A DNA stretch of 64,000 nt, taken from positions 2,493-66,492 of the forward strand of contig JAQUOD010000008.1 of the NCBI GenBank assembly GCA_028717245.1, given 5' to 3'. Source of the stretch: Candidatus Omnitrophota bacterium. Lineage in GTDB: Bacteria; Omnitrophota; Gorgyraeia; Gygaellales; Profunditerraquicolaceae. How positions within the stretch are numbered: the stretch's first letter is position 1; each line of letters starts with the position of its first letter. Below, in pieces: positions 34,973 through 53,007 of this stretch. Both the position numbers and the translations under genes were made by a program. The notes under the pieces were generated by a model, which was given only the letters and a program-made list of their open reading frames with translations, made no database searches and was not told the origin of the DNA.

Positions 34973-35189
34973 TCTATCCCCCCCCTATCATGAAATTAGT
35001 AAAATTAGGGACGTTTCTATTTAAAAGGCAACCCCATTTCTTTTAGGGAGTTGCCTTAGGAATTTTTGCTACTTAAACTTCATCCCGCTACCTCTCTGTA
35101 GACTCTTATTTTACTGCTCTGGAGGGCTTCGGTCAAGGGGGTTTTATCGGGTATCAGGTCATTTCTTGACAATCTGCCCATTATAATTT

Positions 35190-40290: not shown

Positions 40291-41319
40291 TCAATTGTTT
40301 TTATTTATTAAATTCGCCGCTAAATTCACAATTATATCCCGCTCTAACGGGTCGCTTTCGGCAATCATCAGGGTAAGGGCTACTAAAGCATTATCTGCTA
40401 TGCGCTTAGTACCGTCCTCTTTATATAAAAGCTCATTTCTTTCTAAAAACCAAAGAAAGATTGCCGCGGCAATACGCTTATTCCCATCGACAAAAGAATG
40501 GTTCTTCACTATGAAATATAAAAGATTTGCCGCTTTCTCCTCTACGCTAGGATAAAGGTCTTTACCGCCGAACGTCTGGTAAATCGTAGCTATAGAACTT
40601 TTAAAAGATTTATCCCTTTCCGCGCCGAACAGACCAGAACCTCCCAGCCGGATTTTTAATTTTGCTAATGTCTTAATTGCTTCTTCATAGGTGAGCTTAA
40701 ACCTTTCTTCTTTTGAGGTATCCGTGACCTTTATTTTCTTATTGTCATAGGCATCTAAAAGCCTCAAGGCATAATTATAATCGCTTATAACCTCAAGAAG
40801 CCCGAGTACCTCTTTATACTCAAGCTGCTTCTTGTCTTTTATACTACCGATAAGTTTTATAGCGCGCTGCAAAGCTTGCAACTTATGCGCTACCTGCTTT
40901 AAGCGCTGTTCATTCAACGTGTACCCATCAATGAGATGCATTCTTAATACATTGGTTGCCCAAATTCGAAACTGCGTTGCCCGGCTTGAATTTACCCGGT
41001 AGCCGACAGAAATAATAGCATCAAGGTTATAAAAATTGGTGCGGTATTTCTTCCCGTCAGAAGCAGTATGTTCCAAAATGGAACATACTGAATTTTCCTG
41101 TAATTCTTTGCTCTTAAATATGTTATGCAAATGTTTTGTTATGGCCGGCCTCTGGGTTCCAAACAATTTCGCTATCTGCTGCTGGGTCAGCCATACCGTT
41201 TCAAGCTCGAGCGTTACTTCAAGCTTAACCTTCTTATCTTTAGTCTGATAAATAACAATTTCGCCTTTCTGCGGAACAATGTTCTTATTTATTTTAACCA
41301 TTTTCACCTCCATAAACAA
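40291..41319 (-). CDS. RhuM-family N-terminal domain fused to a Fic/Doc (Fido) domain
   Basis: N-terminal ...AIISVGYRVNSSRATQFRIWATNVL (RhuM). C-terminal HSFVDGNKRIAAAIF (Doc-type HxFx(D)GNKR motif). Confidence 0.7.
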   Translation of the reverse strand: MFMEVKMVKINKNIVPQKGEIVIYQTKDKKVKLEVTLELETVWLTQQQIAKLFGTQRPAITKHLHNIFKSKELQENSVCSILEHTASDGKKYRTNFYNLDAIISVGYRVNSSRATQFRIWATNVLRMHLIDGYTLNEQRLKQVAHKLQALQRAIKLIGSIKDKKQLEYKEVLGLLEVISDYNYALRLLDAYDNKKIKVTDTSKEERFKLTYEEAIKTLAKLKIRLGGSGLFGAERDKSFKSSIATIYQTFGGKDLYPSVEEKAANLLYFIVKNHSFVDGNKRIAAAIFLWFLERNELLYKEDGTKRIADNALVALTLMIAESDPLERDIIVNLAANLINKNN

Positions 41320-41574
41320 AAAACCCTCGCTTAAGCATAATCGCTCCTAGCGAAGGTTTTACTTTTTTAACGTCCGGGTTTCCCCCTTCAAACACGGGAC
41401 AACTCTAATTATTGAACTTACTTTATACCCATCTAAGCAATCTGTCAAGTTAATTTTGTACGGACACGCGGCGCACTAGTCCATTAAGAAAAAACTTAAT
41501 CCGTCTGGTAAAATTTGCCCATGAAACCTTTTAAATGGTTATTGTTTAATCTTATGGGGCGGGCGTGCTCGTCT

Positions 41575-41790
41575 CTAATGAAACAACTTAAAATGCACCG
41601 CGCCCTGGGCGACCGAGCACGAAGTGCGAGGAAGTCCTGAGCGAGCATCGCGAGCCGAAGGAGGGCGCTCCCACATCTCGCGTGCAATGGCGCTCGCTGG
41701 GCCGCTCGCTTCGTGGTAATGCAATGCGTGTGCGGCGTGGCTTTGCGTCCTCGCTACGACCTGTATCGACACAGATATCTTTTTACATCG
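41575..41790. repeat. Partial diverged copy of the central part of the 492-bp repeat (aaacaacttaaaatgcaccgcgccctgg...gcgctcgctgggccgctcgcttc...taatgcaatgcgtgtgcggcgtggct)
   Basis: Blocks identical to 43806..44030. The track ORFs 41496..41687 and 41575..41772 lie inside it and are probably spurious. Confidence 0.6.
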
Positions 41791-42038
41791 TCATGGTTTC
41801 CGGCTAACACTAAATAATAATCTTCGCCGTCAACCTTGACGACTACTCGCAACCTTATATCAACGCGAAACTCGTATTTATCGTGGTTAATCTTCTTGAA
41901 ACCGAATCCCGCAGGCAACTCACCTGTTAGGAGAAACGAGTTAAAAACCTCTAAGCTTTCTGCGAGATTATCTTTATCTTGGCGGGTGAGTTTCTTAACA
42001 GAGCGCTCAAAAGAAGGCAGAATTAAGATTCTCTTCAT
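41754..42038 (-). CDS. Type II toxin, RelE/ParE superfamily
   Basis: 94 aa; 4-nt overlap with the upstream AbrB/MazE-like gene. Confidence 0.5.
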   Translation of the reverse strand: MKRILILPSFERSVKKLTRQDKDNLAESLEVFNSFLLTGELPAGFGFKKINHDKYEFRVDIRLRVVVKVDGEDYYLVLAGNHDDVKRYLCRYRS

Positions 42039-42298
42039 TTGGTTATTTTCTTAATGTAACGAGAGAACTCTTTTCCCGGCTTCAGAACCTTTGCCTTGCC
42101 CTTTTCGTTTTCAACGATACGGTCAATGGCTTTCAGTTCTTGTGCAGTATAGCGTGGCTCAACCTTAACGGGGATAAGCTTGATAAAATTACCTTCTACA
42201 TCCACGGCAAACAGCTCATCTAGCTTCAGATGCAGTCTCTTCACAATTACGCTAGGAATAGTTATCTGATTTTTTGCTTTAAGCTTTGTAATAGTCAT
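42035..42298 (-). CDS. AbrB/MazE (SpoVT) family antitoxin
   Basis: KAKNQITIPSVIVKRLHL swapped-hairpin motif. Confidence 0.6.
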   Translation of the reverse strand: MTITKLKAKNQITIPSVIVKRLHLKLDELFAVDVEGNFIKLIPVKVEPRYTAQELKAIDRIVENEKGKAKVLKPGKEFSRYIKKITK

Positions 42299-42414: not shown

Positions 42415-42645
42415 CGAAGTTAGGAAAGAACGGGCTCGACCGCTCCTGCTCCACAGCAAGAGAAATCCAGGTTCGCGGGATGCCCCGCCTTCCCGCAAGA
42501 AGCGGAACACCCGGCATTCATTTATACCGGGGCGCCTTGTGTTCAGTGCTTCAAAACCAACTGTTTGGGCGTGGCGCGGCCCCCACCCCGCGCCCCGCCT
42601 AGCGCTATCTTTTCAAAAACTGCCGTAATTTTTAGGGGGCGGAAA
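42415..42645. repeat. Partial copy of the 3' part of the 492-bp repeat (ggaaagaacgggctcg ... gcgcggcccccaccccgcgccccgcctagcgctatcttttcaaaaactgccgtaatttttaggggg)
   Basis: It matches 44041..44216 and includes the GC-rich hairpin ggcgcggcccccaccccgcgcc. Confidence 0.6.
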
Positions 42646-42700: not shown

Positions 42701-43477
42701 TTAGTCGAGGCAATGAATCGAAACAGCCTTATCATGGCCGTTATTTGCCGAGGGTGAATATTTTACCTCTATACGCCCGCCGTTTTTAAGATGCCAAGCG
42801 CCCCTGCCTTTACCCATATCTTTTCCGGAAGCATCACGAACAGCAGTATCACTTACTATGTCTATACTCCTCATTTCGCCGCTGTCGGCAACAGCCGTTA
42901 ATAGCGCAAGCCTCCAATAGGGAGGCCTTGGTAACATCTTTTTGACTGATTCGACCCTGCCTGTAAAGGTATCCCCTGTCTGACCTGCACTTTCTTGAGC
43001 TAGCTGCGTTGTTTCGGCAGCCGCGTTTGCCGGCGTTGTTAAAGCTGCTGGCTGCGGAACATAATCCAAAGGAACATAACGCATCGAGGCGGCTTCATAT
43101 TGGCCGTTGTCACCGATCAAATATTTGATCTCCATCTTTCTACCTTTTCTCGGTGGTGCGCCGTATACTGACTTACCGTTAACATCAGTAATACGTAGAC
43201 CGTCTCTTGGCACCCAAATATCTTTCCTCTCGCCATTATCAGTAACAATTACAAACCTATAAGGACAGCGCAAGCTAAAAGTGACTCCGCCCTTCACAAC
43301 TTTGCCTATGAAAATATTGTTTTCAGCGGCATTAACCAGCATTTCCGGAACCTTTGCCTGCGTTGTTGATAAGGTTTTGGTTTCCTCGGCTTTTGCTTGA
43401 AACAATTGGATAAAAAATAAAGAACTGATAAATGTAATAGCACCCAACACCAAAAATTTCTTTTTCATATTTTTCAC
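42701..43477 (-). CDS. Secreted protein of unknown function
   Basis: Signal peptide; no motif recognised. Confidence 0.45.
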   Translation of the reverse strand: MKNMKKKFLVLGAITFISSLFFIQLFQAKAEETKTLSTTQAKVPEMLVNAAENNIFIGKVVKGGVTFSLRCPYRFVIVTDNGERKDIWVPRDGLRITDVNGKSVYGAPPRKGRKMEIKYLIGDNGQYEAASMRYVPLDYVPQPAALTTPANAAAETTQLAQESAGQTGDTFTGRVESVKKMLPRPPYWRLALLTAVADSGEMRSIDIVSDTAVRDASGKDMGKGRGAWHLKNGGRIEVKYSPSANNGHDKAVSIHCLD

Positions 43478-43570
43478 TCCATTTCAAACTGGTAAGCGGA
43501 TTCAGGCAAAATTTGTTGAATAGTTATCTGACGGATAAAATTGAGAAACAAGCGCGCTAAATTAGAAAAG

Positions 43571-43726
43571 AACCTCTCCCGCTATATCTACGCTCTTCCT
43601 CGCCTCTTATCGTTCTGTTTATAATACCGGGGTAAAACTTAGTCTCTAAGGAAACAGCTTAAATGCACCGCGCCCTTGCGACCGAAGGGAGTCCCGAGCG
43701 CAGCCGAGGGACAAACAAACCTTTTC
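43571..43726. repeat. Partial tandem unit (~160 bp) duplicated from the 5' part of the 492-bp repeat
   Basis: aacctctcccgctata(t/g)ctac...gtctctaaggaaaca(g/a)cttaaa(a)tgcaccgcgcc recurs at 43733..43835. Confidence 0.55.
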
Positions 43727-44218
43727 CCGGAAACAACCTCTCCCGCTATAGCTACACTCTGCCCCGCCTTTTGTCGTTTTTGTATCTAATACCCGGGTAA
43801 AGCTGGTCTCTAAGGAAACAACTTAAAATGCACCGCGCCCTGGGGGGCGCTCCCGTATCTTGCGATTCACCGCTCCCCCTCGCTTAGGGCTCGGGGTCGC
43901 TGGGCGCTCGCTGGGCCGCTCGCTTCTTGCTAATGCAATGCGTGTGCGGCGTGGCTCGCCGCTACAACAATAAAAAAATACACGGTCGCGGCGTGCGTCC
44001 TCGCTTGAAGCTCTCTTTACATCTTAAAAACAAAATTTTTTAGGAAAGAACGGGCTCGGCCGTAGCGCCTTAAGCTACGCTAAAAACTACAAGGACGGCG
44101 CTTTGCCCCGCCTCTTGCGTTCGGTGCTTCAAAGAACTGCTTTGGCGGGGCGCGGCCCCCACCCCGCGCCCCGCCTAGCGCTATCTTTTCAAAAAACTGG
44201 CGAAATTTTTAGAGGGAG
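43727..44218. repeat. Left copy of a 492-bp GC-rich, hairpin-rich inverted repeat
   Basis: Near-identical reverse complement of 50658..51150; only a few mismatches or indels were seen. Confidence 0.85.
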
Positions 44219-44338
44219 GAAATTAGAAGCATCCCCTTTTTACTTAATTATTATACCTCTTCAAAATAAAAATCCCAAGCAGATTCTATATGCTTGAGAT
44301 TATAAAAAATAGAAACGTCCCCTTTTCTTCTTAAAATT

Positions 44339-44995
44339 TTACTCTACCAGCAAAACTTTATCTTCGTTAGGCGTTCTCCCATAAAAATCAGCTATTTTAT
44401 CGCGAAGTTCTTTTCTCGCATTCGCCGATAATTGAAGAAGTTTGATATCTGATAATGTCCCTTTATCTCCTTTTAGGGCTTCGCAGTTAACTTTAAAATT
44501 ATCTCTAAAATCTATCATAAAAAACCTAGTTTTAGAATTTTCCCGTTTAGCATTAGTGATGATATATTCAGGAAAATACTCGTGTTCTTGATACACAAAT
44601 AATTCTAATAGAGCATATGAAATACCTATAGCTTTCCTTTTTTCTTGTTCTTCGGGAGGTAATTTTGTCCAAATATCTGGGGCTAAACTTTGTTCCGGTT
44701 CCATCATTTTATTTATACGCATCAAGTCTTCTTTAAAATATGGGTTATCAAAAAAATCTACTCTTATAGGTTTTAAAGGCGATATCGCAATAATTCCATC
44801 ATTTTTAGTTTTTTGGCTTATAGTACAACAAGGAGACAAAACTACACATAAATTAGGAAAATTTATATCAACTTTATAATTATGCTCTTCGTCCATTACC
44901 ATTGGCTTCTCGATTGCGGATGCAGCTAAAATAAAACCCTTTACCACATCACCAAACCGCAATTGACTATTATCTGGAGTTTCAGCATAAAACAT
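44339..44995 (-). CDS. Hypothetical protein (218 aa), last gene of a 3-gene operon
   Basis: 9-nt gap from the upstream gene; AT-rich; no motif recognised. Confidence 0.5.
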   Translation of the reverse strand: MFYAETPDNSQLRFGDVVKGFILAASAIEKPMVMDEEHNYKVDINFPNLCVVLSPCCTISQKTKNDGIIAISPLKPIRVDFFDNPYFKEDLMRINKMMEPEQSLAPDIWTKLPPEEQEKRKAIGISYALLELFVYQEHEYFPEYIITNAKRENSKTRFFMIDFRDNFKVNCEALKGDKGTLSDIKLLQLSANARKELRDKIADFYGRTPNEDKVLLVE

Positions 44996-45003
44996 ATTGA
45001 CTA

Positions 45004-45237
45004 CTATTCCTTATAAAACTGCTCAACATCATGATAACCTTGTTGGGCATTTTTTTGTTTGTATGACATGAAGTCTTTGTTTATTTCTACTTCAGTAATA
45101 CCCACAAATTCATTCGAAGGGCTAACTTTTACAGTAATGTTAAATCTTTCGAATGGATAAACAATGGTTCTAGATTCTTGTGTTAAGTTGCTATCACCTG
45201 TTCCTGGACATGAAACATTACTTATTAAATTATCCAT
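45004..45237 (-). CDS. Hypothetical small protein (77 aa)
   Basis: 4-nt gap to the upstream gene. Confidence 0.45.
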   Translation of the reverse strand: MDNLISNVSCPGTGDSNLTQESRTIVYPFERFNITVKVSPSNEFVGITEVEINKDFMSYKQKNAQQGYHDVEQFYKE

Positions 45238-45240
45238 AGT

Positions 45241-46008
45241 CTACTTAGCCTCCTCTTTCTTTAAATCTTTTTTCATGTATTCAATAACTGGAGCTTTTAT
45301 TGTTTTTTCGAATTCAGCAGAAATAAGCTCGTGCAATTTATCCACTACACCCAATGAGTCTTCTGGTTTGATGTTTTGTGCATAGCTATCAAAATCGAGA
45401 ATATATTTATTTTGTTCGGCATTAAACGATTCAAGGTATCGGACAAAATATCCATTTCTTTTAACCAGAGTAACATAATTTGTTTCCATAGTTTCCTCAA
45501 TACTAAAACGTTCAAAAGGGAATACCGTATTATACCATTCCTTAAAAGTGGCTGTTGTCCGCGCCGGAACAGGGCATTCATCAATATACCTCAAACCTAT
45601 TCTTTGTATTATGGGCAATTTCACTATAGAAAAGAAATTATCTAACACGAGCTTTATGGTATCCCGAAATCGTAATGTCGCATCCTTGTTGTTGTATGTT
45701 TTATGGTAGTTGGAAGTTAAATCCAAAGAACTGGTGAGAACATTCAAAATAATCTTTTTTTCTGACTTAAACTGCCAAATTTTTTGTCCTTCTGAAGGTC
45801 CACCCGGTAACTGTTCGATTTTCCCTTCAGGTCCGATATCGGCAAAAACAATTTGTTTCCGAAACACCAATGAAGATTCCGGAAATTCATTTATGATTTT
45901 TGCCTGGAAATCTCCTATTTTATTTTCGATAGAAAATAAATTGGGAAATTTAATTTGGAAAATAACCTGCTTGACGGTAGGATTAGGAAAAACTTCATTT
46001 ATCGACAT
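45241..46008 (-). CDS. Hypothetical protein (255 aa), possibly TIGR04255-like
   Basis: N-terminal VKQVIFQIKFP and internal IIQRIGLRYID resemble what I recall of that uncharacterised family. This is unverified. Confidence 0.45.
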   Translation of the reverse strand: MSINEVFPNPTVKQVIFQIKFPNLFSIENKIGDFQAKIINEFPESSLVFRKQIVFADIGPEGKIEQLPGGPSEGQKIWQFKSEKKIILNVLTSSLDLTSNYHKTYNNKDATLRFRDTIKLVLDNFFSIVKLPIIQRIGLRYIDECPVPARTTATFKEWYNTVFPFERFSIEETMETNYVTLVKRNGYFVRYLESFNAEQNKYILDFDSYAQNIKPEDSLGVVDKLHELISAEFEKTIKAPVIEYMKKDLKKEEAK

Positions 46009-46275
46009 AGGTATCTCCTTTTTTCCTTTGGCTATTTCGAATCTTTAGCTTTTGCCTTGACAGCTTCTCTCTTTATTTAATTAACCCTTTTCCCTGACCT
46101 CTCGCCTCCTGGGATTAAGAATCTCGCCGATACAATGACACCAATTACTAATTTCCATTCTTAATTAACTTTTTGTAATCAATAAAACCACAAATTTTAT
46201 TTGATTTTTGATATTATAACACTGTATTCATCATTGTAAACTTAAAGATTGGAGGACAACGTTTCTATTTTCCTA

Positions 46276-46533
46276 TTAAGCTTTCTTTTTCAAATTATCG
46301 GGCGCATTAACAGATGTAACATTTGTTGATTGTATAAAATATAGCGGGTTCCTTTCGTTATCATACTTATTGTCTAGTCGAAGCACTTTAGTTGCTACGA
46401 GCTTCATTTTTATAACAGTGCCGTCATCTAGTAAATACTGATTCCAATATTCATTTGTTTGATTGATATCAATTGGAGTAGCTTCTACTTCTTCCCCACC
46501 AAAATTAATTTTTACTTTGTCTGCCATATACAT
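46276..46533 (-). CDS. Hypothetical small protein (85 aa)
   Basis: Separated by AT-rich 270-bp and 35-bp intergenic regions. Confidence 0.4.
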   Translation of the reverse strand: MYMADKVKINFGGEEVEATPIDINQTNEYWNQYLLDDGTVIKMKLVATKVLRLDNKYDNERNPLYFIQSTNVTSVNAPDNLKKKA

Positions 46534-46568
46534 TCTCCCTTCTAATTTATAACTTTACCCGTTTATGA

Positions 46569-47741
46569 TCAAAGCTTAATACTTAACTCTTTTGAAGGTC
46601 TATTATATATATAGTCATCGAAGATTATTTCTGTTCCTGTTTTATGTTTAATCTTACGAATAGGAACTCGTTCATTTTTTATTAATTTAAATTTATTTTT
46701 ATGCTCCTTTAAATCAAGCATAATCTTAGCCGCAAGGATACTAGCAAATTCAACTGGAACAGCATTTCCTACCATTTTATAACCGTCCGCGATATCAGTA
46801 TATTTAAAAACAAAACTGTCCGGGAAAGTTTGGATCCTCGCGCATTCTCTTACCGATAATCGCCTATATAAATGTTCTTTACCTTTTATAAACTCTCTTT
46901 TATTTTGTTCAATAAACTTCATTTTGGGCGCTTTCGGATGAATTGGAGCGTGCCTCCCTCCCGCCTGGATCGTAAATGACCGCTCATCCCAACTTCTTAC
47001 CCTATTTCTAGACATATAAATCGTTGAAAAATTTCCAATCATATACTCATGATTAGGAATCTCAAGGTTATCGCCATTCGTTTTGTTATATTTTAGTGCT
47101 GGCTTGGGCTCTTTTAAATCGCCAATGGCATCGCGCAAGCTTACAAATCTTTTAGAACCTTCCGGAAATTCATAAGACATTCCCATTTTCTTGTGGTACC
47201 CAACTATAATAACTCTTTCCCTGTCTTGCGGAACATTATAATTGCCAGCATTCAGCAACTTATAAGAAACATTGTATCCAGCTGAAGAAAACTCGCTTAA
47301 AATCTTCTCAAACGCTTCCTTATGAATATTTGCTAAAATTCCAGATACATTTTCTGCTAGAAAAAATAAAGGTCGTTTGTCCTTTAAGACTCTAATATAT
47401 TCAAAAAATACTTGCCCTCTATGGTCTTTTATTCCCCGGCAAGCTCCTGCTTCGCTCCATGCCTGACAAGGAGGACCGCCAATAATCCCATCGCATCCAT
47501 CTGGGATTTCCTTAGATGGAATATCAACAATGCTTCTTTTGTCTAGGGGCGTATGAGGAAAATTTAAGGTCATTGTTTCCCAAATAGACTTGTCAAACTC
47601 GTTTGACCAAATAATCTCGAATCCCGCCTTTTCAAACCCCAAATCCAAACCTCCGCAACCGCTAAAGAGCGACACTATTTTAAGCTTCTCTTGATTTTTT
47701 GTATACATTTCGGTATGTCCTTTATTAGTTGTTGTTGCCAA
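46569..47741 (-). CDS. dcm: DNA (cytosine-5)-methyltransferase
   Basis: FSGCGGLDLGF (motif I), GGPPCQAWS (motif IV), ENV (motif VI). Confidence 0.9.
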   Translation of the reverse strand: MATTTNKGHTEMYTKNQEKLKIVSLFSGCGGLDLGFEKAGFEIIWSNEFDKSIWETMTLNFPHTPLDKRSIVDIPSKEIPDGCDGIIGGPPCQAWSEAGACRGIKDHRGQVFFEYIRVLKDKRPLFFLAENVSGILANIHKEAFEKILSEFSSAGYNVSYKLLNAGNYNVPQDRERVIIVGYHKKMGMSYEFPEGSKRFVSLRDAIGDLKEPKPALKYNKTNGDNLEIPNHEYMIGNFSTIYMSRNRVRSWDERSFTIQAGGRHAPIHPKAPKMKFIEQNKREFIKGKEHLYRRLSVRECARIQTFPDSFVFKYTDIADGYKMVGNAVPVEFASILAAKIMLDLKEHKNKFKLIKNERVPIRKIKHKTGTEIIFDDYIYNRPSKELSIKL

Positions 47742-48193
47742 AATCTTATAACTTGCCAGCCAGACTTTCTTAATTCCTTATTATTCTTCTTATCCCTAGC
47801 AACATTTCTTTCAATTTTCGGTATCCAATAATCCCTATTATCTTTTATTTTCTTCTTTTTTTGTTTCCACCTGTAACCATGCCAAAATTCGCCATCAACA
47901 AATATGGCTATTTTTCTATCAATAAGCGCTATATCCGGCTTACCGATTACATTAACACAGTTTTTTCTAAACTTAATCTTTTCTTTACGAAGCGCTTTTT
48001 GAAGTAGAATTTCGGGGGTAGTCTTATCGCTTCTGATTTTCCGCATTAAATCAGAACGCTCAGCAGAAACTTTAAACTTATAAACCATATTATAACTCGT
48101 AAAACCACCAAGTTCAATATTTATGCATTTCTTGCCTCCTTTATTGGGTAAACTGTTTTTCTCTTCCCAATATAATAGACGCAAGGAATGCAA
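47675..48193 (-). CDS. vsr: Very-short-patch-repair (Vsr) endonuclease
   Basis: IFVDGEFWHGY...RNVARD...GWQVIRFWQQ; overlaps the dcm 5' end. Confidence 0.85.
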   Translation of the reverse strand: MHSLRLLYWEEKNSLPNKGGKKCINIELGGFTSYNMVYKFKVSAERSDLMRKIRSDKTTPEILLQKALRKEKIKFRKNCVNVIGKPDIALIDRKIAIFVDGEFWHGYRWKQKKKKIKDNRDYWIPKIERNVARDKKNNKELRKSGWQVIRFWQQQLIKDIPKCIQKIKRSLK

Positions 48194-48211
48194 GAATCTA
48201 ACAACAATTTT

Positions 48212-49096
48212 TTATTTTTCTAATACCTGCTTTTCTAGATCGGGCAATTCTATCGCTTGAGTATCAAATTTGAGGCTTTTACCTAGCTTAGAAGCAGCTG
48301 TATGCAGCCTCATAGACAGTTTCCAGCCATTAGAAAAAGTTAGATAGATATAGCTTTTGCCTTCTAAAGCCGCCTGAACGCTTTCGGCTTTAGGCATCTT
48401 AGTAAAATCCAGAATCAATACTTTATCGACCAAGTCGATTACCTTATAGAAACCAGTTGACCCCACTAAGAAATTAAACAAATACTGAGCATGGCTTCTA
48501 TCAACACATAATTTATTAATAGCCTCGGTAATGACCTTACATACAGGATAATAAAGATTATCCTTTATGTAATCGCCAGTTATAGTAACGAGATCTCTAA
48601 AGTTTCTAGCCAGTGGCATTGCAACTTTACTATCAAAAAGAAACCGATCTACAATATCATTATATGCTTTTCGAAACTCCAAGTCTTCTTTTGATTTTTT
48701 ATTGTATCCACACCATATTGCTGTAGTGGGCGGACGTTGATGTTTAAGCGCCGAATGATTGTGCTTTACAGACAAATTTATTGTTTTATCACCAAAAACA
48801 ATACTAATATCTGTTACGTCGCCTTTTTTCCCACTCTCGTCTGTATTTTTGTCAACAAAGATTTCTTTACAGCTTATCAAATTCAGCAACCAATTATGTA
48901 TCATAACTGCGGTTTTTGAATAATTGCTTTTTAGCTCAATAGGCAGACTTTCGTACTTAGAAATATCCCTTAGTTGATCAGATTTAGCTTGTTGACTTAA
49001 TACAACCTTAAACTTTGACTGCCCACTAATTAGGTAGTCAATAATCTTATATTCTAACGCTCTACCGTTCCTATCAGAAATATTTTCTAATTGCAT
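48212..49096 (-). CDS. Putative restriction-endonuclease component (about 295 aa from the internal Met MQLENISDRN...)
   Basis: The position in the C-protein/PLD-nuclease/Vsr/Dcm operon suggests the call, which is context-only. The track ORF start at 49198 overlaps the upstream gene, so the likely start is 49096, abutting the upstream stop. Confidence 0.4.
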   Translation of the reverse strand: MQLENISDRNGRALEYKIIDYLISGQSKFKVVLSQQAKSDQLRDISKYESLPIELKSNYSKTAVMIHNWLLNLISCKEIFVDKNTDESGKKGDVTDISIVFGDKTINLSVKHNHSALKHQRPPTTAIWCGYNKKSKEDLEFRKAYNDIVDRFLFDSKVAMPLARNFRDLVTITGDYIKDNLYYPVCKVITEAINKLCVDRSHAQYLFNFLVGSTGFYKVIDLVDKVLILDFTKMPKAESVQAALEGKSYIYLTFSNGWKLSMRLHTAASKLGKSLKFDTQAIELPDLEKQVLEK

Positions 49097-49097
49097 C

Positions 49098-50354
49098 TTA
49101 TAATTCAATCTTAATTTCTTCGCCGTTATCCCACAGATAATTAAAATGTTCGATATATTGATTAAGAATATGTCGCGGGCAATTGGGAAAGATAACAAAA
49201 CAATTTACTTCCGAGAAATTGTCATTTTTTACTATCTTCCCTTTGCCCTTTCCCATCTCCATTTTCCTGAGACCAAAAGCGAACTGGGTAGAAGTATAAT
49301 TGGCAGTAGAAATTAAAAGCGTATTGTCTATAATCATAAACTTATCGTGTGCCAAATTGTTATACTTCTGTCCGGCATGCATTACATACTGAAAAATCGT
49401 TTCCGCTATTGCTGCGCGCCGCTTATCAGCCAAGCTGGTGTGAGGCACCTGTTTTAGAAACCGAAATTCTATGGCAGGAGAACTGCAAAATTTTGTATAA
49501 ATTGCATTAATTACTGAGCTTGCATTAGGATCAAAAGAGGAAAGGTCATGAAAATGCTGAGCACATACCCAAATCCTCGTTTTTGCTTTCTTAATAAGAT
49601 TTATGATCCGTTTTAGGACATAGTGATTGCTGCCATCTTCATCATAATAATAAAATGGCGCTGTAAAAAGGCAGTTATTGAATACTTTATTTTTGTGGAT
49701 TTCCCTACCAGCACACGAAAATAAGAATTCCTTTCTTGAAGTATTGAATTCTTTCAAAAAAATATTATACGGGACTGAGTATTTTTCGAGGTCTTTAAAA
49801 AAATCCCTAAAGGCGGCTTCGACTTTTGGCATACTTTCAAGTACGATCAAATTCTCGCTATGCTGCGGATCACCAAACATGAAATTGCCAGAAGATAGGA
49901 TGCATTTGGTTCTATCATTTTTATAACTAGCGAGAATCGCCTTAACATGAAAACTGAAAGAAGCTCCCCCATCAGCATACAATGCCCCATACCAAGCATA
50001 CAGGTGAGGGAAAATATACAAGGACATATTTCTTGTTGAACTAATTTTATTATAAATTTGCTTTGCAATATGCCGAGGGGAAACTTTTCCTCTTCGTCCA
50101 TTTACGCTAACTTTCTTATTGTTATACCCAGATAAAGGAAGCGAAGTAATCTTGATCTTGCATCCTAAAGAGGCTAATTGTTCCAAAAAACTGAAATAGG
50201 CAGGGTTGTTAAATAAATATGCGGCGATATGAATTTCCTTTGCCCCCCTCAGCTCTTTAAATAAATCAGCCATAAGTTGAGGGCAACTTCCTTCTGGTAA
50301 TTTCTTTCCGCTACGTAAACCGGGTGGAATTCTACAATATGCCCGAATAGACAT
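49098..50354 (-). CDS. Phospholipase-D-family (HKD) nuclease domain protein, candidate restriction endonuclease (BfiI/NgoAVII-type)
   Basis: HDKFMIIDNTLLISTANYT matches HxK(x)4D(x)6(G)SxN. There is a second degenerate HVK...SSGN element. Confidence 0.55.
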   Translation of the reverse strand: MSIRAYCRIPPGLRSGKKLPEGSCPQLMADLFKELRGAKEIHIAAYLFNNPAYFSFLEQLASLGCKIKITSLPLSGYNNKKVSVNGRRGKVSPRHIAKQIYNKISSTRNMSLYIFPHLYAWYGALYADGGASFSFHVKAILASYKNDRTKCILSSGNFMFGDPQHSENLIVLESMPKVEAAFRDFFKDLEKYSVPYNIFLKEFNTSRKEFLFSCAGREIHKNKVFNNCLFTAPFYYYDEDGSNHYVLKRIINLIKKAKTRIWVCAQHFHDLSSFDPNASSVINAIYTKFCSSPAIEFRFLKQVPHTSLADKRRAAIAETIFQYVMHAGQKYNNLAHDKFMIIDNTLLISTANYTSTQFAFGLRKMEMGKGKGKIVKNDNFSEVNCFVIFPNCPRHILNQYIEHFNYLWDNGEEIKIEL

Positions 50355-50356
50355 CG

Positions 50357-50587
50357 TTACTTAAACAACTCCCTTATATCAACGTTTAAAGCTTTAGCAA
50401 GTTTTTCAATATTCTTTAAAGCAATATTTCTTTTACCACTTTCAACCTGCCCAATATAAGTACGGTGTAAATCAGCTATCTCGGCAAGCTTTTCTTGAGA
50501 GAGCTTTTTCTTTATGCGATATTTGCGAACTTTAGCGCCAAATTGCTCTAAAATTACAGACATGGTAACCCCTCCTTTTATTGACAA
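50357..50587 (-). CDS. Controller (C) protein-like XRE-family HTH regulator
   Basis: 76 aa, KLSQEKLAEIADLHRTYIGQVESGKRNIALKNIEKLAKAL. It is the first gene of the operon, with its stop 3 nt before the nuclease start. Confidence 0.7.
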   Translation of the reverse strand: MSIKGGVTMSVILEQFGAKVRKYRIKKKLSQEKLAEIADLHRTYIGQVESGKRNIALKNIEKLAKALNVDIRELFK

Positions 50588-50657
50588 TATTGTATACTTA
50601 TGTTATATTTAAGTCTACAGAATCGGAGTAACATTATCATAAACAGAAACGGCTTTT

Positions 50658-51150
50658 CTCCCTCTAAAAATTTCGCCAGTTTTTTGAAAAGATAGCGCTA
50701 GGCGGGGCGCGGGGTGGGGGCCGCGCCCCGCCAAAGCAGTTCTTTGAAGCACCGAACGCAAGAGGCGGGGCAAAGCGCCGTCCTTGTAGTTTTTAGCGTA
50801 GCTTAAGGCGCTACGGCCGAGCCCGTTCTTTCCTAAAAAATTTTGTTTTTAAGATGTAAAGAGAGCTTCAAGCGAGGACGCACGCCGCGACCGTGTATTT
50901 TTTTATTGTTGTAGCGGCGAGCCACGCCGCACACGCATTGCATTAGCAAGAAGCGAGCGGCCCAGCGAGCGCCCAGCGACCCCGAGCCCTAAGCGAGGGG
51001 GAGCGGTGAATCGCAAGATACGGGAGCGCCCCCCAGGGCGCGGTGCATTTTAAGTTGTTTCCTTAGAGACCAGCTTTACCCCGGTATTAGAGACAAAAAA
51101 CGACAAAAGGCGGGGCAGAGTGTAGCTATAGCGGGAGAGGTTGTTTCCGG
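50658..51150. repeat. Right copy of the 492-bp inverted repeat
   Basis: Reverse complement of 43727..44218. Confidence 0.85.
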
Positions 51151-51259
51151 AGAAAGATTTGTTTGTAAGGGCGAGGAGATAGAGCTGTTTCAGGGCTTTA
51201 CCCCGGGGGAGTTTCTCAGGGAAGAGAAAGACAAAAATTTAGAGCCAACTCCCATAGGG

Positions 51260-51351
51260 AACCCCATTTTTCTTTCGGCCATTTTTGGGCGAAATAAACA
51301 TAAGGTAACTTGTAGTCAAAACGCAACTTAGCGTCGGCGAGCCGAAAGTTC
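51260..51351. repeat. Left copy of a perfect 92-bp inverted repeat bracketing the serine recombinase gene
   Basis: Identical to the reverse complement of 52842..52933 (ccccatttttctttcggccatttttgggcgaaataaacataaggtaacttgtagtcaaaacgcaacttagcgtcggcgagccgaaagttcg). Confidence 0.85.
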
Positions 51352-51490
51352 GCTTTTGCTGCGCAAAAGTTTATGCTTCGCTTAATGCCAATCTTTTCTT
51401 TATACCGCGCTATGTAATATTTAGATTTTTTGAGCTATCGAGGGCTCAAAAAATTTTAATTGGCAGTCGCCAATTTTCAAGGAGGTATTT

Positions 51491-52939
51491 ATGAACAGAT
51501 ATTTCTTGTATGCCCGCAAATCCACCGATTCGGAAGACAGGCAAGTCCTCTCTATCGAAGCGCAACTTGCGGAATTAAGAGAATTCGCTAAGCGACAAAA
51601 CCTGTTTATTAAGGAAGAGCTATTTGAAGCGAAGACCGCGAAGCAGCCCGGACGAGAAGTTTTTAACTTGTTGGTGAAACGCATTGAGCGAGACGAGGCA
51701 AACGGAATACTTGCCTGGCATCCTGACCGCTTAGCGAGAAACTCGATGGATGGCGGGAAGATAATTTACTTAACCGACACAGGCAAACTGGTGGATTTGC
51801 GGTTTCCTACTTACAGCTTCGAGAATACGGCACAAGGAAAGTTTATGCTCTCGATTATCTTCGGCCAGTCGAAGTATTTTGTTGATAATCTCTCTGAGAA
51901 CGTCTTGCGCGGCTTCCGCCAGAAGCTAAGGCGCGGTGAATATCCGGGCTTTGCTCCTTTAGGTTATAAAAATAATATCCTTGATCACTCAATAGAAGTC
52001 GTGCCGGAAGCCGCGCATAAGATTAGAGAACTTTTCGAACTGTATGCGACTGGCCGCTACTCAATGGAAGAGTTAAGAAAATTGGCGACTGCCTCTGGCT
52101 TGGCCAGCAGAAGGAAACATGTCAGGCTGAGCCTTAGCAATATCGAGCGCATCCTCAAGAATCCTTTTTATTTCGGCGCATTCAGATTTAAAGGCGAACT
52201 CTACGAAGGCACGCATCCGCCGATTATAACTAAAGAACTTTTTAATAAAGCGCAGGTCGCGCTTAGGCTACGCAGTAAGCCGCACATTAACGCACCGCAT
52301 TATCATGTCTTTCGCGGTTTTATACAATGCGCCGAGTGCGGCTGTATGATCACTTCCGAAATCCAGAAACAGAGATATATCTATTATCGTTGCACTCGTA
52401 AGCGCGGCGGATGCGGGCAACCTTTCTTGCGAGAGGATGCGCTCGTCAGTCAAATTAGCGAAGCCATCGAAAAAGTTGCGATTAGCACAGACTTAAAGAA
52501 ATTTTTGTTTGATAAGATAGATAGCGAGGCTTCTGCTGGTCTACCTCCCTCTGCTTCTACCCTTGCCCTCAATAACAGGATTACAGAGATAGACCGAAAA
52601 CTTAATATGCTCTTAGATAGCTACATTAGTCAGGTTATAAGCGAAGAGGAATACAAGAAAAAGAAGTCAATTTTGCTCAGTGAGAAGTTAGAATTGAAGG
52701 AAAAATTGACAAGCGATGAGGGCAAGGGTAAAGTTTGGCTCGAACTGGCTCGAACTATTGTAACTTCTGCTGGCCAAGCCAGTTACATAGCGCGGAAGGG
52801 ATCGCTGGAAGAAAAACGGGAGTTTGTGAAAAAGATTGGCTCGAACTTTCGGCTCGCCGACGCTAAGTTGCGTTTTGACTACAAGTTACCTTATGTTTAT
52901 TTCGCCCAAAAATGGCCGAAAGAAAAATGGGGTGGCTGA
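51491..52939 (+). CDS. Large serine recombinase (resolvase/invertase catalytic domain, recombinase domain, zinc ribbon, coiled coil)
   Basis: YARKSTDSEDRQVLSIEAQ (catalytic Ser region), zinc ribbon CAECGCM...YYRCTRKRGGCGQ. GGAGG Shine-Dalgarno 7 nt upstream. Confidence 0.85.
   Translation: MNRYFLYARKSTDSEDRQVLSIEAQLAELREFAKRQNLFIKEELFEAKTAKQPGREVFNLLVKRIERDEANGILAWHPDRLARNSMDGGKIIYLTDTGKLVDLRFPTYSFENTAQGKFMLSIIFGQSKYFVDNLSENVLRGFRQKLRRGEYPGFAPLGYKNNILDHSIEVVPEAAHKIRELFELYATGRYSMEELRKLATASGLASRRKHVRLSLSNIERILKNPFYFGAFRFKGELYEGTHPPIITKELFNKAQVALRLRSKPHINAPHYHVFRGFIQCAECGCMITSEIQKQRYIYYRCTRKRGGCGQPFLREDALVSQISEAIEKVAISTDLKKFLFDKIDSEASAGLPPSASTLALNNRITEIDRKLNMLLDSYISQVISEEEYKKKKSILLSEKLELKEKLTSDEGKGKVWLELARTIVTSAGQASYIARKGSLEEKREFVKKIGSNFRLADAKLRFDYKLPYVYFAQKWPKEKWGG
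52842..52933. repeat. Right copy of the 92-bp inverted repeat (the last 31 codons of the recombinase plus the first nucleotides of the tRNA-His 3' end)
   Basis: See 51260..51351. Confidence 0.85.
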
Positions 52940-53007
52940 CGGGGATCGAACCCGCAAAACCTCTAGAGCCACAGTCTAGCGCTCTGACCGATTGAGCTAC
53001 AGCCACC
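52928..53007 (-). tRNA. tRNA-His (anticodon GTG) with extra 5' G-1 and encoded CCA
   Basis: Cloverleaf folded by hand: acceptor GTGGCTG/CAGCCAC, D-arm GCTC...GAGC, anticodon stem CTAGA/TCTAG with loop CTGTGGC, T-loop GGGTTCGATCCCC. Confidence 0.8.

Follow-up and report, generated by a model that had tools for sequence, protein, structure and literature searches.

A mobile three-gene operon of bacteria and archaea that links a TIGR04255-family protein to a predicted MazF-fold protein: a candidate toxin-antitoxin or abortive-infection module

The window analyzed here is a stretch of 64,000 nucleotides (nt) from a Candidatus Omnitrophota bacterium (a metagenome-assembled genome, contig JAQUOD010000008.1), which carries at 44339-46008 of its minus strand an operon of three small genes, designated A, B and C. 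The operon is a co-inherited unit that is horizontally mobile, sporadic in its distribution and found across the boundary between bacteria and archaea. It is read, with about even confidence, as a mobile three-part toxin-antitoxin or abortive-infection module, in which protein C is the effector, protein B its neutralizer or adaptor and protein A an obligatory third partner. The reading as a three-part conflict module follows from the strict linkage of the genes, their tight coupling, their sporadic spread across domains and the toxin fold predicted for C. The three genes are as follows.

45241-46008, minus strand: gene A, an open reading frame (ORF) of 255 amino acids (aa) for a TIGR04255-family protein.
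45004-45237, minus strand: gene B, an ORF of 77 aa for a small acidic protein, the candidate neutralizer (antitoxin or adaptor).
44339-44995, minus strand: gene C, an ORF of 218 aa for a protein of predicted MazF/Kid/CcdB fold, the candidate toxic effector.

An earlier note on the window had described three co-directional genes of these lengths, which are present as stated; the gaps that it gave as 4 and 9 nt are each one nucleotide shorter, with 3 nt between A and B (45238-45240) and 8 nt between B and C (44996-45003). In comparisons with relatives that are 85-90% identical in DNA, the ratio of nonsynonymous to synonymous substitution rates (dN/dS) is 0.13 for A, 0.08-0.19 for B and 0.20 for C, values that indicate purifying selection on all three. 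Based on these low ratios and the many homologs of each, A, B and C are genuine genes rather than chance ORFs.

The linkage of the triplet is strict from either side. For the C-side census, contigs were collected via C and joined by one genome per GTDB species, and hidden Markov models of A, B and C were run over six-frame ORFs. All 39 C-found loci with upstream DNA have the three genes side by side in this order, and two other loci are cut at the contig end. The A-side census, made by the same procedure, took in two long contigs and 80 metagenome loci. All three genes occur in 67 of the 80 and another 12 end within 350 nt of A, the A-B-C order being kept in 67 of the 68 loci that have room downstream; four other A-side loci (L042-L045) likewise carry all three genes. 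The exception, L088 (234-1619), has A followed by a 207-aa ORF and is missing C. The N-terminus of this ORF is B-like (a T-G motif and the IIYNFEKYEIKI strand) and the remainder is unrelated, such that L088 is a rearranged remnant or a variant. In a separate case from IMG/VR (L046, 8001-12132), the A homolog loses similarity at its C-terminus, and in place of B and C there are two ORFs, one zinc-ribbon/HTH-like and the other of 575 aa and by eye similar to a primase/helicase; this module appears to be disrupted by an inserted mobile or viral element. The triplet in which the earlier note saw a module recurs as such in other genomes, but lies within defense islands in a minority of cases only.

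The hosts of the triplet, every one of those recorded being uncultured, span two domains of life. They include bacteria (Omnitrophota, KSB1, Zixibacteria, Dehalococcoidales, Ignavibacteria, Marinimicrobia, Planctomycetes, Firmicutes, Desulfatiglandales and Chlorobium) and archaea (Methanophagales, ANME-2, Methanogaster and a Methanosarcina genome bin). In one subclade (L001, L009, L010, L014, L020, L021, L024 and L036), about 100 nt upstream of A are conserved between bacterial (KSB1, Marinimicrobia) and archaeal (Methanophagales, Methanogaster) loci and include an invariant AAGGAGG. Upstream DNA common to bacteria and archaea suggests either that the module passed recently between the domains or that the stretch is a conserved leader or operator. 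This conserved DNA is not shared with the leader of the operon in the window.

Protein C is predicted to form a MazF/Kid/CcdB-type SH3-like barrel, and its AlphaFold2 model is confident (predicted local distance difference test, pLDDT, 89.4; predicted template-modeling score, pTM, 0.85). In the model, the barrel is split by five helices (79-83, 85-89, 91-95, 106-111 and 114-123), which form an insertion between the barrel strands 68-73 and 132-135. It is this predicted fold that makes a toxin-based conflict system the leading reading. The earlier note recognized no catalytic motif in any of the three proteins, to which structure prediction now adds the toxin fold of C. Sequence features of C include the motif RFGDV in the N-terminal part, the strand VVLSPCC and, at the C-terminus, a basic helix (R194, R198 and K200). 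The pairwise identity of C is 45%. Among 58 homologs, the polar residues R13, D16, N84, N95, R194 and K200 are invariant, and C56, C57 and C171 are at least 90% conserved; the cysteine-rich patch singled out in the earlier note (C56 and C57) is real. Scans of Pfam, NCBIfam, PADLOC and PHROGs give no match for C, a Pfam scan of the 58 family members at E <= 10 yields nothing of note, and a PDB sequence search with the C profile is likewise empty. A search of 1.84 billion representatives with the C profile retrieves 373 clusters, and all of the 150 listed are C-sized. The PemK/MazF family is expected to be far larger than this number. With 373 clusters only, C-sized among those listed, C probably does not merge with PemK, and it is a closed family.

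Protein B always sits between A and C, and its homologs in profile searches are exclusively stand-alone proteins of 69-99 aa. B has an isoelectric point (pI) of 4.8 (family median 5.1) and a pairwise identity of 42%, the lowest of the three proteins, although only slightly under that of C. Small, acidic, least conserved and encoded directly upstream of a putative toxin gene, B resembles an antitoxin, as judged from its sequence and gene position. The family has one invariant residue, Thr13, in a G-T-G motif (codon 45199-45201) within the variable N-terminus, and Thr13 is a candidate modification or recognition site. The tail is conserved (K-x-F-x(13)-HDV-x-EFY-x-E), whereas B evolves fast outside it, and the core between N-terminus and tail is, from its sequence pattern, probably beta-rich. 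No match to B is found in Pfam, NCBIfam, PADLOC or PHROGs, and the B profile is without a sequence match in the PDB.

Protein A is the only one of the three to match any family model. It scores 87.1 bits against NCBIfam TIGR04255 (cutoff 30; E 1.6e-24; model positions 2-247 of 252), in agreement with the earlier note, which had been reminded of this family, and a protein identical to A is named TIGR04255 family protein in public sources. The A-subfamily of TIGR04255 has 986 matches at E <= 0.001 among 90%-identity clusters. A has no Pfam family, a Pfam scan of 41 A-family members at E <= 10 was without meaningful result, the A profile has no sequence match in the PDB, and a literature search on TIGR04255 (CHP04255) found no paper. 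A is the most conserved component (mean pairwise identity 54%) and carries many invariant charged residues on its strands, the invariant positions including H102, K103, R136, R140, D143, C145, E193, D205, D207 and H226. The AlphaFold2 model of A (pLDDT 85.7) has a pseudo-duplicated beta-alpha-beta4-alpha fold with a TBP-like or guanidino-kinase-like sheet, and Foldseek finds for it weak Med20 matches only in the PDB. The idea of A as a SecB-like chaperone was rejected, as the predicted fold does not support it, and a DNA-binding regulator is less likely given the acidic pI.

In the mechanism proposed for the toxin-based module, C would most likely be an effector that acts on nucleic acid and stops growth, with RNA cleavage being the default expectation for the fold. 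B would be the neutralizer or adaptor, holding C inactive for as long as B is continuously made. A would be the required third partner, which may sense the trigger, stabilize or modify B, or gate C. The toxicity of C, its neutralization by B, any role of A and the pay-off, whether phage exclusion or cassette stabilization, are all inferred. Of the novel defense or abortive-infection module proposed in the earlier note, the novelty relative to PADLOC models, the mobility and a (predicted) toxin fold stand, whereas the anti-phage activity is wholly inferred.

The predicted barrel of C is of the type of MazEF, Kid-Kis and CcdAB, but C lacks sequence-level membership in either the PemK/MazF or the CcdB family. 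Compared to MazF-type toxins, C is twice the size because of the five-helix insertion, and the positions that hand mapping pairs with the catalytic Arg and Thr of MazF are not conserved. The layout of a small gene directly before the toxin gene is that of classical type II toxin-antitoxin modules and is kept in all loci. By contrast to type II antitoxins, however, B has no recognized AbrB, ribbon-helix-helix, helix-turn-helix (HTH) or Phd-like DNA-binding domain, and by contrast to classical type II modules a third gene (TIGR04255) is obligatory. Three co-transcribed genes, of which the third protein controls an antitoxin-toxin pair, are found in TAC/CmdTAC, omega-epsilon-zeta, HipBST and PaaR2-PaaA2-ParE2, and the accessory-antitoxin-toxin order of omega-epsilon-zeta and HipBST matches A-B-C. 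A differs from the third proteins of TAC/CmdTAC/MqsRAC and other tripartite systems: rather than a SecB-like chaperone or a small regulator that binds DNA, it is a double repeat of TBP-like or guanidino-kinase-like fold and the largest and most conserved component. Among the RnlA/LsoA toxins of the RnlAB and LsoAB anti-phage toxin-antitoxin systems, RnlA fuses TBP-like domains to a HEPN RNase in one polypeptide. In the operon, by contrast, the TBP-like protein stands apart from the putative nuclease, which is of MazF fold, and the structural resemblance is weak. For the sporadically distributed orphan family TIGR04255, the new finding is the strict linkage of one large subfamily to a protein of MazF fold and a small acidic one.

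An architectural parallel to C is described from type II Gabija (Liu-DS1) of Escherichia coli, where GajC carries a MazF-like domain that is split by an insertion of five helices (PMC13069673, NAR 2026). GajC is essential for abortive-infection immunity, alongside the helicase GajB (PMC13069673). C has the same split-MazF five-helix architecture, a likeness that is drawn from the published description. Type II Gabija is, however, a two-gene system with the UvrD-type helicase GajB, in place of which the operon has a TIGR04255 protein and a 77-aa protein; no helicase domain is found in A or B by Pfam, NCBIfam and PADLOC scans. None of the three proteins matches PADLOC-DB v2.0.0 (2023) at E <= 0.1.

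The genes around the triplet were scanned as the two nearest ORFs on each side of about 90 loci (229 proteins). The flanks vary by locus and include serS with a histidine kinase, glycosyltransferases, ParAB, integrases and a transposase. One census counts three phage integrases, two DNA methylases, one transposase and one HipA; a second counts four N6_N4 methylases, two N6 methylases, two Eco57I-type matches, one MvaI/BcnI endonuclease, two resolvases and two rve integrases. The 229 neighbors hold about 8-10 DNA methylases or restriction genes and about 8 recombinases or transposases. These restriction-modification and mobile-element genes are the commonest repeated neighbors, yet they occur in a minority of loci only. 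The share of restriction-modification and mobile-element neighbors is estimated, not computed, to lie well above the random-gene level. Helicases are not recurrent neighbors, and the unrelated DEAD/ResIII gene of one close relative (L050) lies downstream. The module behaves like a scattered, self-contained, toxin-antitoxin-type cassette that is somewhat enriched near restriction-modification and mobile-element genes. The defense context claimed in the earlier note holds in the window, where the operon shares a mobile island with a restriction-modification system, but is not typical of the family, for which such neighbors are a minority of the 229.

Several observations weigh against a toxin-antitoxin or abortive-infection module. 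Varied housekeeping genes make up the remaining neighbors, which are the majority. The triplet is nearly absent from IMG/VR (4 viral contigs of 2.9 million), and A and C have no tblastn match in a phage collection or in a plasmid collection of 72,556 sequenced plasmids, which is biased to cultured hosts. None of the 58 C-family members matches PemK or CcdB even at E <= 10, and hhalign of the C profile against the MazF of E. coli and Bacillus subtilis gives a probability of <= 1%. When mapped by hand via the shared VVLS strand, MazF Arg29 falls on N48 of C and Thr52 on K75, both of which are variable. Thus, if C cleaves RNA, it would have to use other residues. The family median pI of C is 6.2 and, therefore, not basic. 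B has no DNA-binding domain recognizable by family scans and PDB sequence search, although a cryptic fold is possible, and the fold of A gives no function.

Some of the same observations would fit an activation-type defense, in which there is no antitoxin and C is a latent nuclease like GajC that A, upon sensing infection, switches on directly or via B. This alternative is a possible one, to be held only tentatively. The architecture of C is that published for GajC, which depends on GajB and works through abortive infection (PMC13069673). The high conservation of A and the invariant charged residues on its sheet would suit a ligand-binding or enzymatic sensor; B is devoid of a DNA-binding domain, and C is not basic. 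The operon, however, encodes no helicase or other known sensor domain, and the gene of a small acidic protein right before that of a MazF-fold protein is the classical antitoxin-toxin layout.

The same toxin-antitoxin biochemistry may instead be selected for the post-segregational stabilization of mobile cassettes and islands (addiction) rather than for protection from phages, which is considered unlikely as the sole role. Integrases, resolvases, transposases or ParAB genes adjoin the module in several loci, many loci are solitary insertions between housekeeping genes and, in the window, the module lies inside a cassette that is bracketed by inverted repeats and located beside a serine recombinase gene. 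Most loci, however, have no mobile-element gene among the two nearest genes per side, and the module is absent from the 72,556 plasmids, with the bias to cultured hosts noted above. Addiction and defense are, moreover, not mutually exclusive.

A more specific version of the toxin-antitoxin reading, and quite an improbable one in its details, is an enzyme-gated system in which a kinase- or ligase-like A with a guanidino-kinase-type sheet covalently modifies Thr13 of B, or senses a nucleotide or phage ligand, and thereby sets the silencing of C by B. A very doubtful alternative dispenses with the toxin altogether. Here, catalysis would fall to A, a kinase or ligase that uses ATP and has a guanidino-kinase- or glutamine-synthetase-like sheet, while B would be its substrate or cofactor and C a nucleic-acid-binding accessory, with the three proteins serving in modification or repair. 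The invariant Arg, Lys, His, Asp and Glu residues on the strands of A and the single invariant Thr of B are consistent with such chemistry. The structural matches to A, however, have only 6-9% sequence identity, TBP, Med20 and AdoMetDC score nearly as well as the enzymes, Foldseek gives Med20 alone and weakly, and no nucleotide-binding motif is identified. The sporadic mobile distribution is, moreover, the one seen for conflict systems, and almost all known proteins of MazF/CcdB fold are toxins. That the genes are unrelated or of housekeeping type and adjacent by chance can be dismissed, as the linkage is strict in more than 100 loci of many phyla and two domains, the flanks vary and the coupling is tight.

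The expression signals of the operon and the neighboring ORF Z are as follows.

46015-46020 (AAGGAG, gene A), 45249-45255 (GAGGAGG, gene B) and 45007-45012 (AAGGAA, gene C): Shine-Dalgarno-like motifs.
46009-46093, minus strand: leader of gene A, conserved in the closest relatives and including AAGGAG (46015-46020).
46094-46275, minus strand: AT-rich segment of 182 nt between ORF Z and the conserved A leader, carrying the promoter candidate.
46213-46240, minus strand: sigma-70-like promoter candidate for the operon (TTTACA, a 16-nt spacer and an extended -10, TG-TATAAT).
46276-46533, minus strand: ORF Z, 85 aa, which precedes A in the closest relatives only.

A promoter region of its own had been assigned to the operon at 46009-46275, in agreement with the location of the promoter candidate (read from 46240 to 46213). 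This candidate matches 11 of 12 consensus positions and is the top site of 44000-46700, as judged by consensus match only; the number of sigma-70-like sites in the region is not above shuffled expectation. The segment 46094-46275 has no counterpart in the closest relatives (L051-L056), to which blastn aligns 46093-44311 and 46538-46276. A 13-nt perfect inverted repeat, AAAATAGAAACGT, at 44306-44318 and 46259-46271 brackets A-B-C with the promoter segment. The repeat was considered as the boundary of a mobile unit and rejected as marginal: its BLAST E-value is about 0.1 within the window, similar 12-15-mers recur elsewhere in the window (at 35008-35022) and one arm is inside the segment that relatives lack.

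ORF Z has a dN/dS of 0.05, which indicates strong purifying selection, and no match in Pfam, NCBIfam, PADLOC or PHROGs. It is found in L051-L056, where the gene order is integrase, a 31-aa ORF, Z and A-B-C, and is absent from the other 43 loci examined. Z was rejected as a fourth component, as it is confined to the closest relatives; it is instead a lineage-specific neighbor outside the conserved triplet, since it precedes A in these relatives only.

In the window, the operon is part of a low-GC cassette on an island of mobile character, with the following landmarks.

43777-44222 and 50654-51099: inverted repeat of 446 nt (99%), bracketing the 6.4-kb low-GC cassette.
51491-52939: large serine recombinase gene (Resolvase, Recombinase and Zn_ribbon_recom domains), beyond the 446-nt repeat.
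52928-53006: tRNA-His, adjoining the cassette beyond the repeat.

The cassette has a GC content of 0.33-0.36, compared to 0.42-0.47 for the surrounding DNA, and contains a restriction-modification operon, ORF Z and A-B-C. The context described in the earlier note is accurate here: the restriction-modification operon is confirmed on the same strand upstream (an HTH control protein, a phospholipase D (PLD)-like protein, a HaeIII-like endonuclease, Vsr and a Dcm methylase), the bracketing inverted repeats are present, and the adjoining tRNA-His and recombinase gene agree with a tRNA-associated island. The pairing with restriction-modification is, however, not general, as the closest relatives carry an integrase in that position. 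An Rfam search of 43500-51500 found nothing.

The PLD-like ORF of 418 aa (49098-50354, minus strand) lies between the control protein gene and the HaeIII-like endonuclease ORF (48212-49198, minus strand), the longest call of which it overlaps by about 100 nt. It has weak matches to DISARM DrmC and NucT and is an unusual extra in a type II restriction-modification operon. Shorter partial copies of the same GC-rich repeat occur at 41567-41609, 41689-41742, 42559-42619 and 43567-43680, where they divide small gene units: a MazE-like pair (41754-42298) and a 258-aa ORF (42701-43477), the N-terminus of which resembles a signal peptide by eye. The arrangement resembles an array of cassettes delimited by repeats, or a hotspot able to invert or recombine. 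A perfect 92-nt inverted repeat (51261-51352 and 52842-52933) flanks the serine recombinase gene, with one arm inside the 3' end of the gene and abutting tRNA-His; it may be an integration-site duplication or an invertible segment. At the island edge, a RhuM/Fic-domain protein (40291-41319, minus strand) adds to the mobile and conflict character of 40-53 kb.

The operon would be of a known kind, a mobile module based on a MazF-fold toxin, but with a three-part make-up not yet described and an orphan family among its parts. Two orphan families, the TIGR04255 subfamily and the 77-aa family, become linked to a recognizable toxin fold, which provides a testable hypothesis for both. The split-MazF architecture is found here with wholly different partners than in type II Gabija, which suggests a reusable effector cassette. 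The module is present in bacteria and archaea of anoxic sediments, including anaerobic methanotrophic archaea (ANME) and methanogens, communities in which few defense systems are characterized, and the upstream DNA conserved in one subclade points to a recent inter-domain transfer of a conflict system. If the enzyme-gated version were true, it would provide the first biochemical function for TIGR04255 and define a new way of regulating MazF-fold toxins, one that uncultured anaerobic bacteria have in common with ANME and methanogen archaea.

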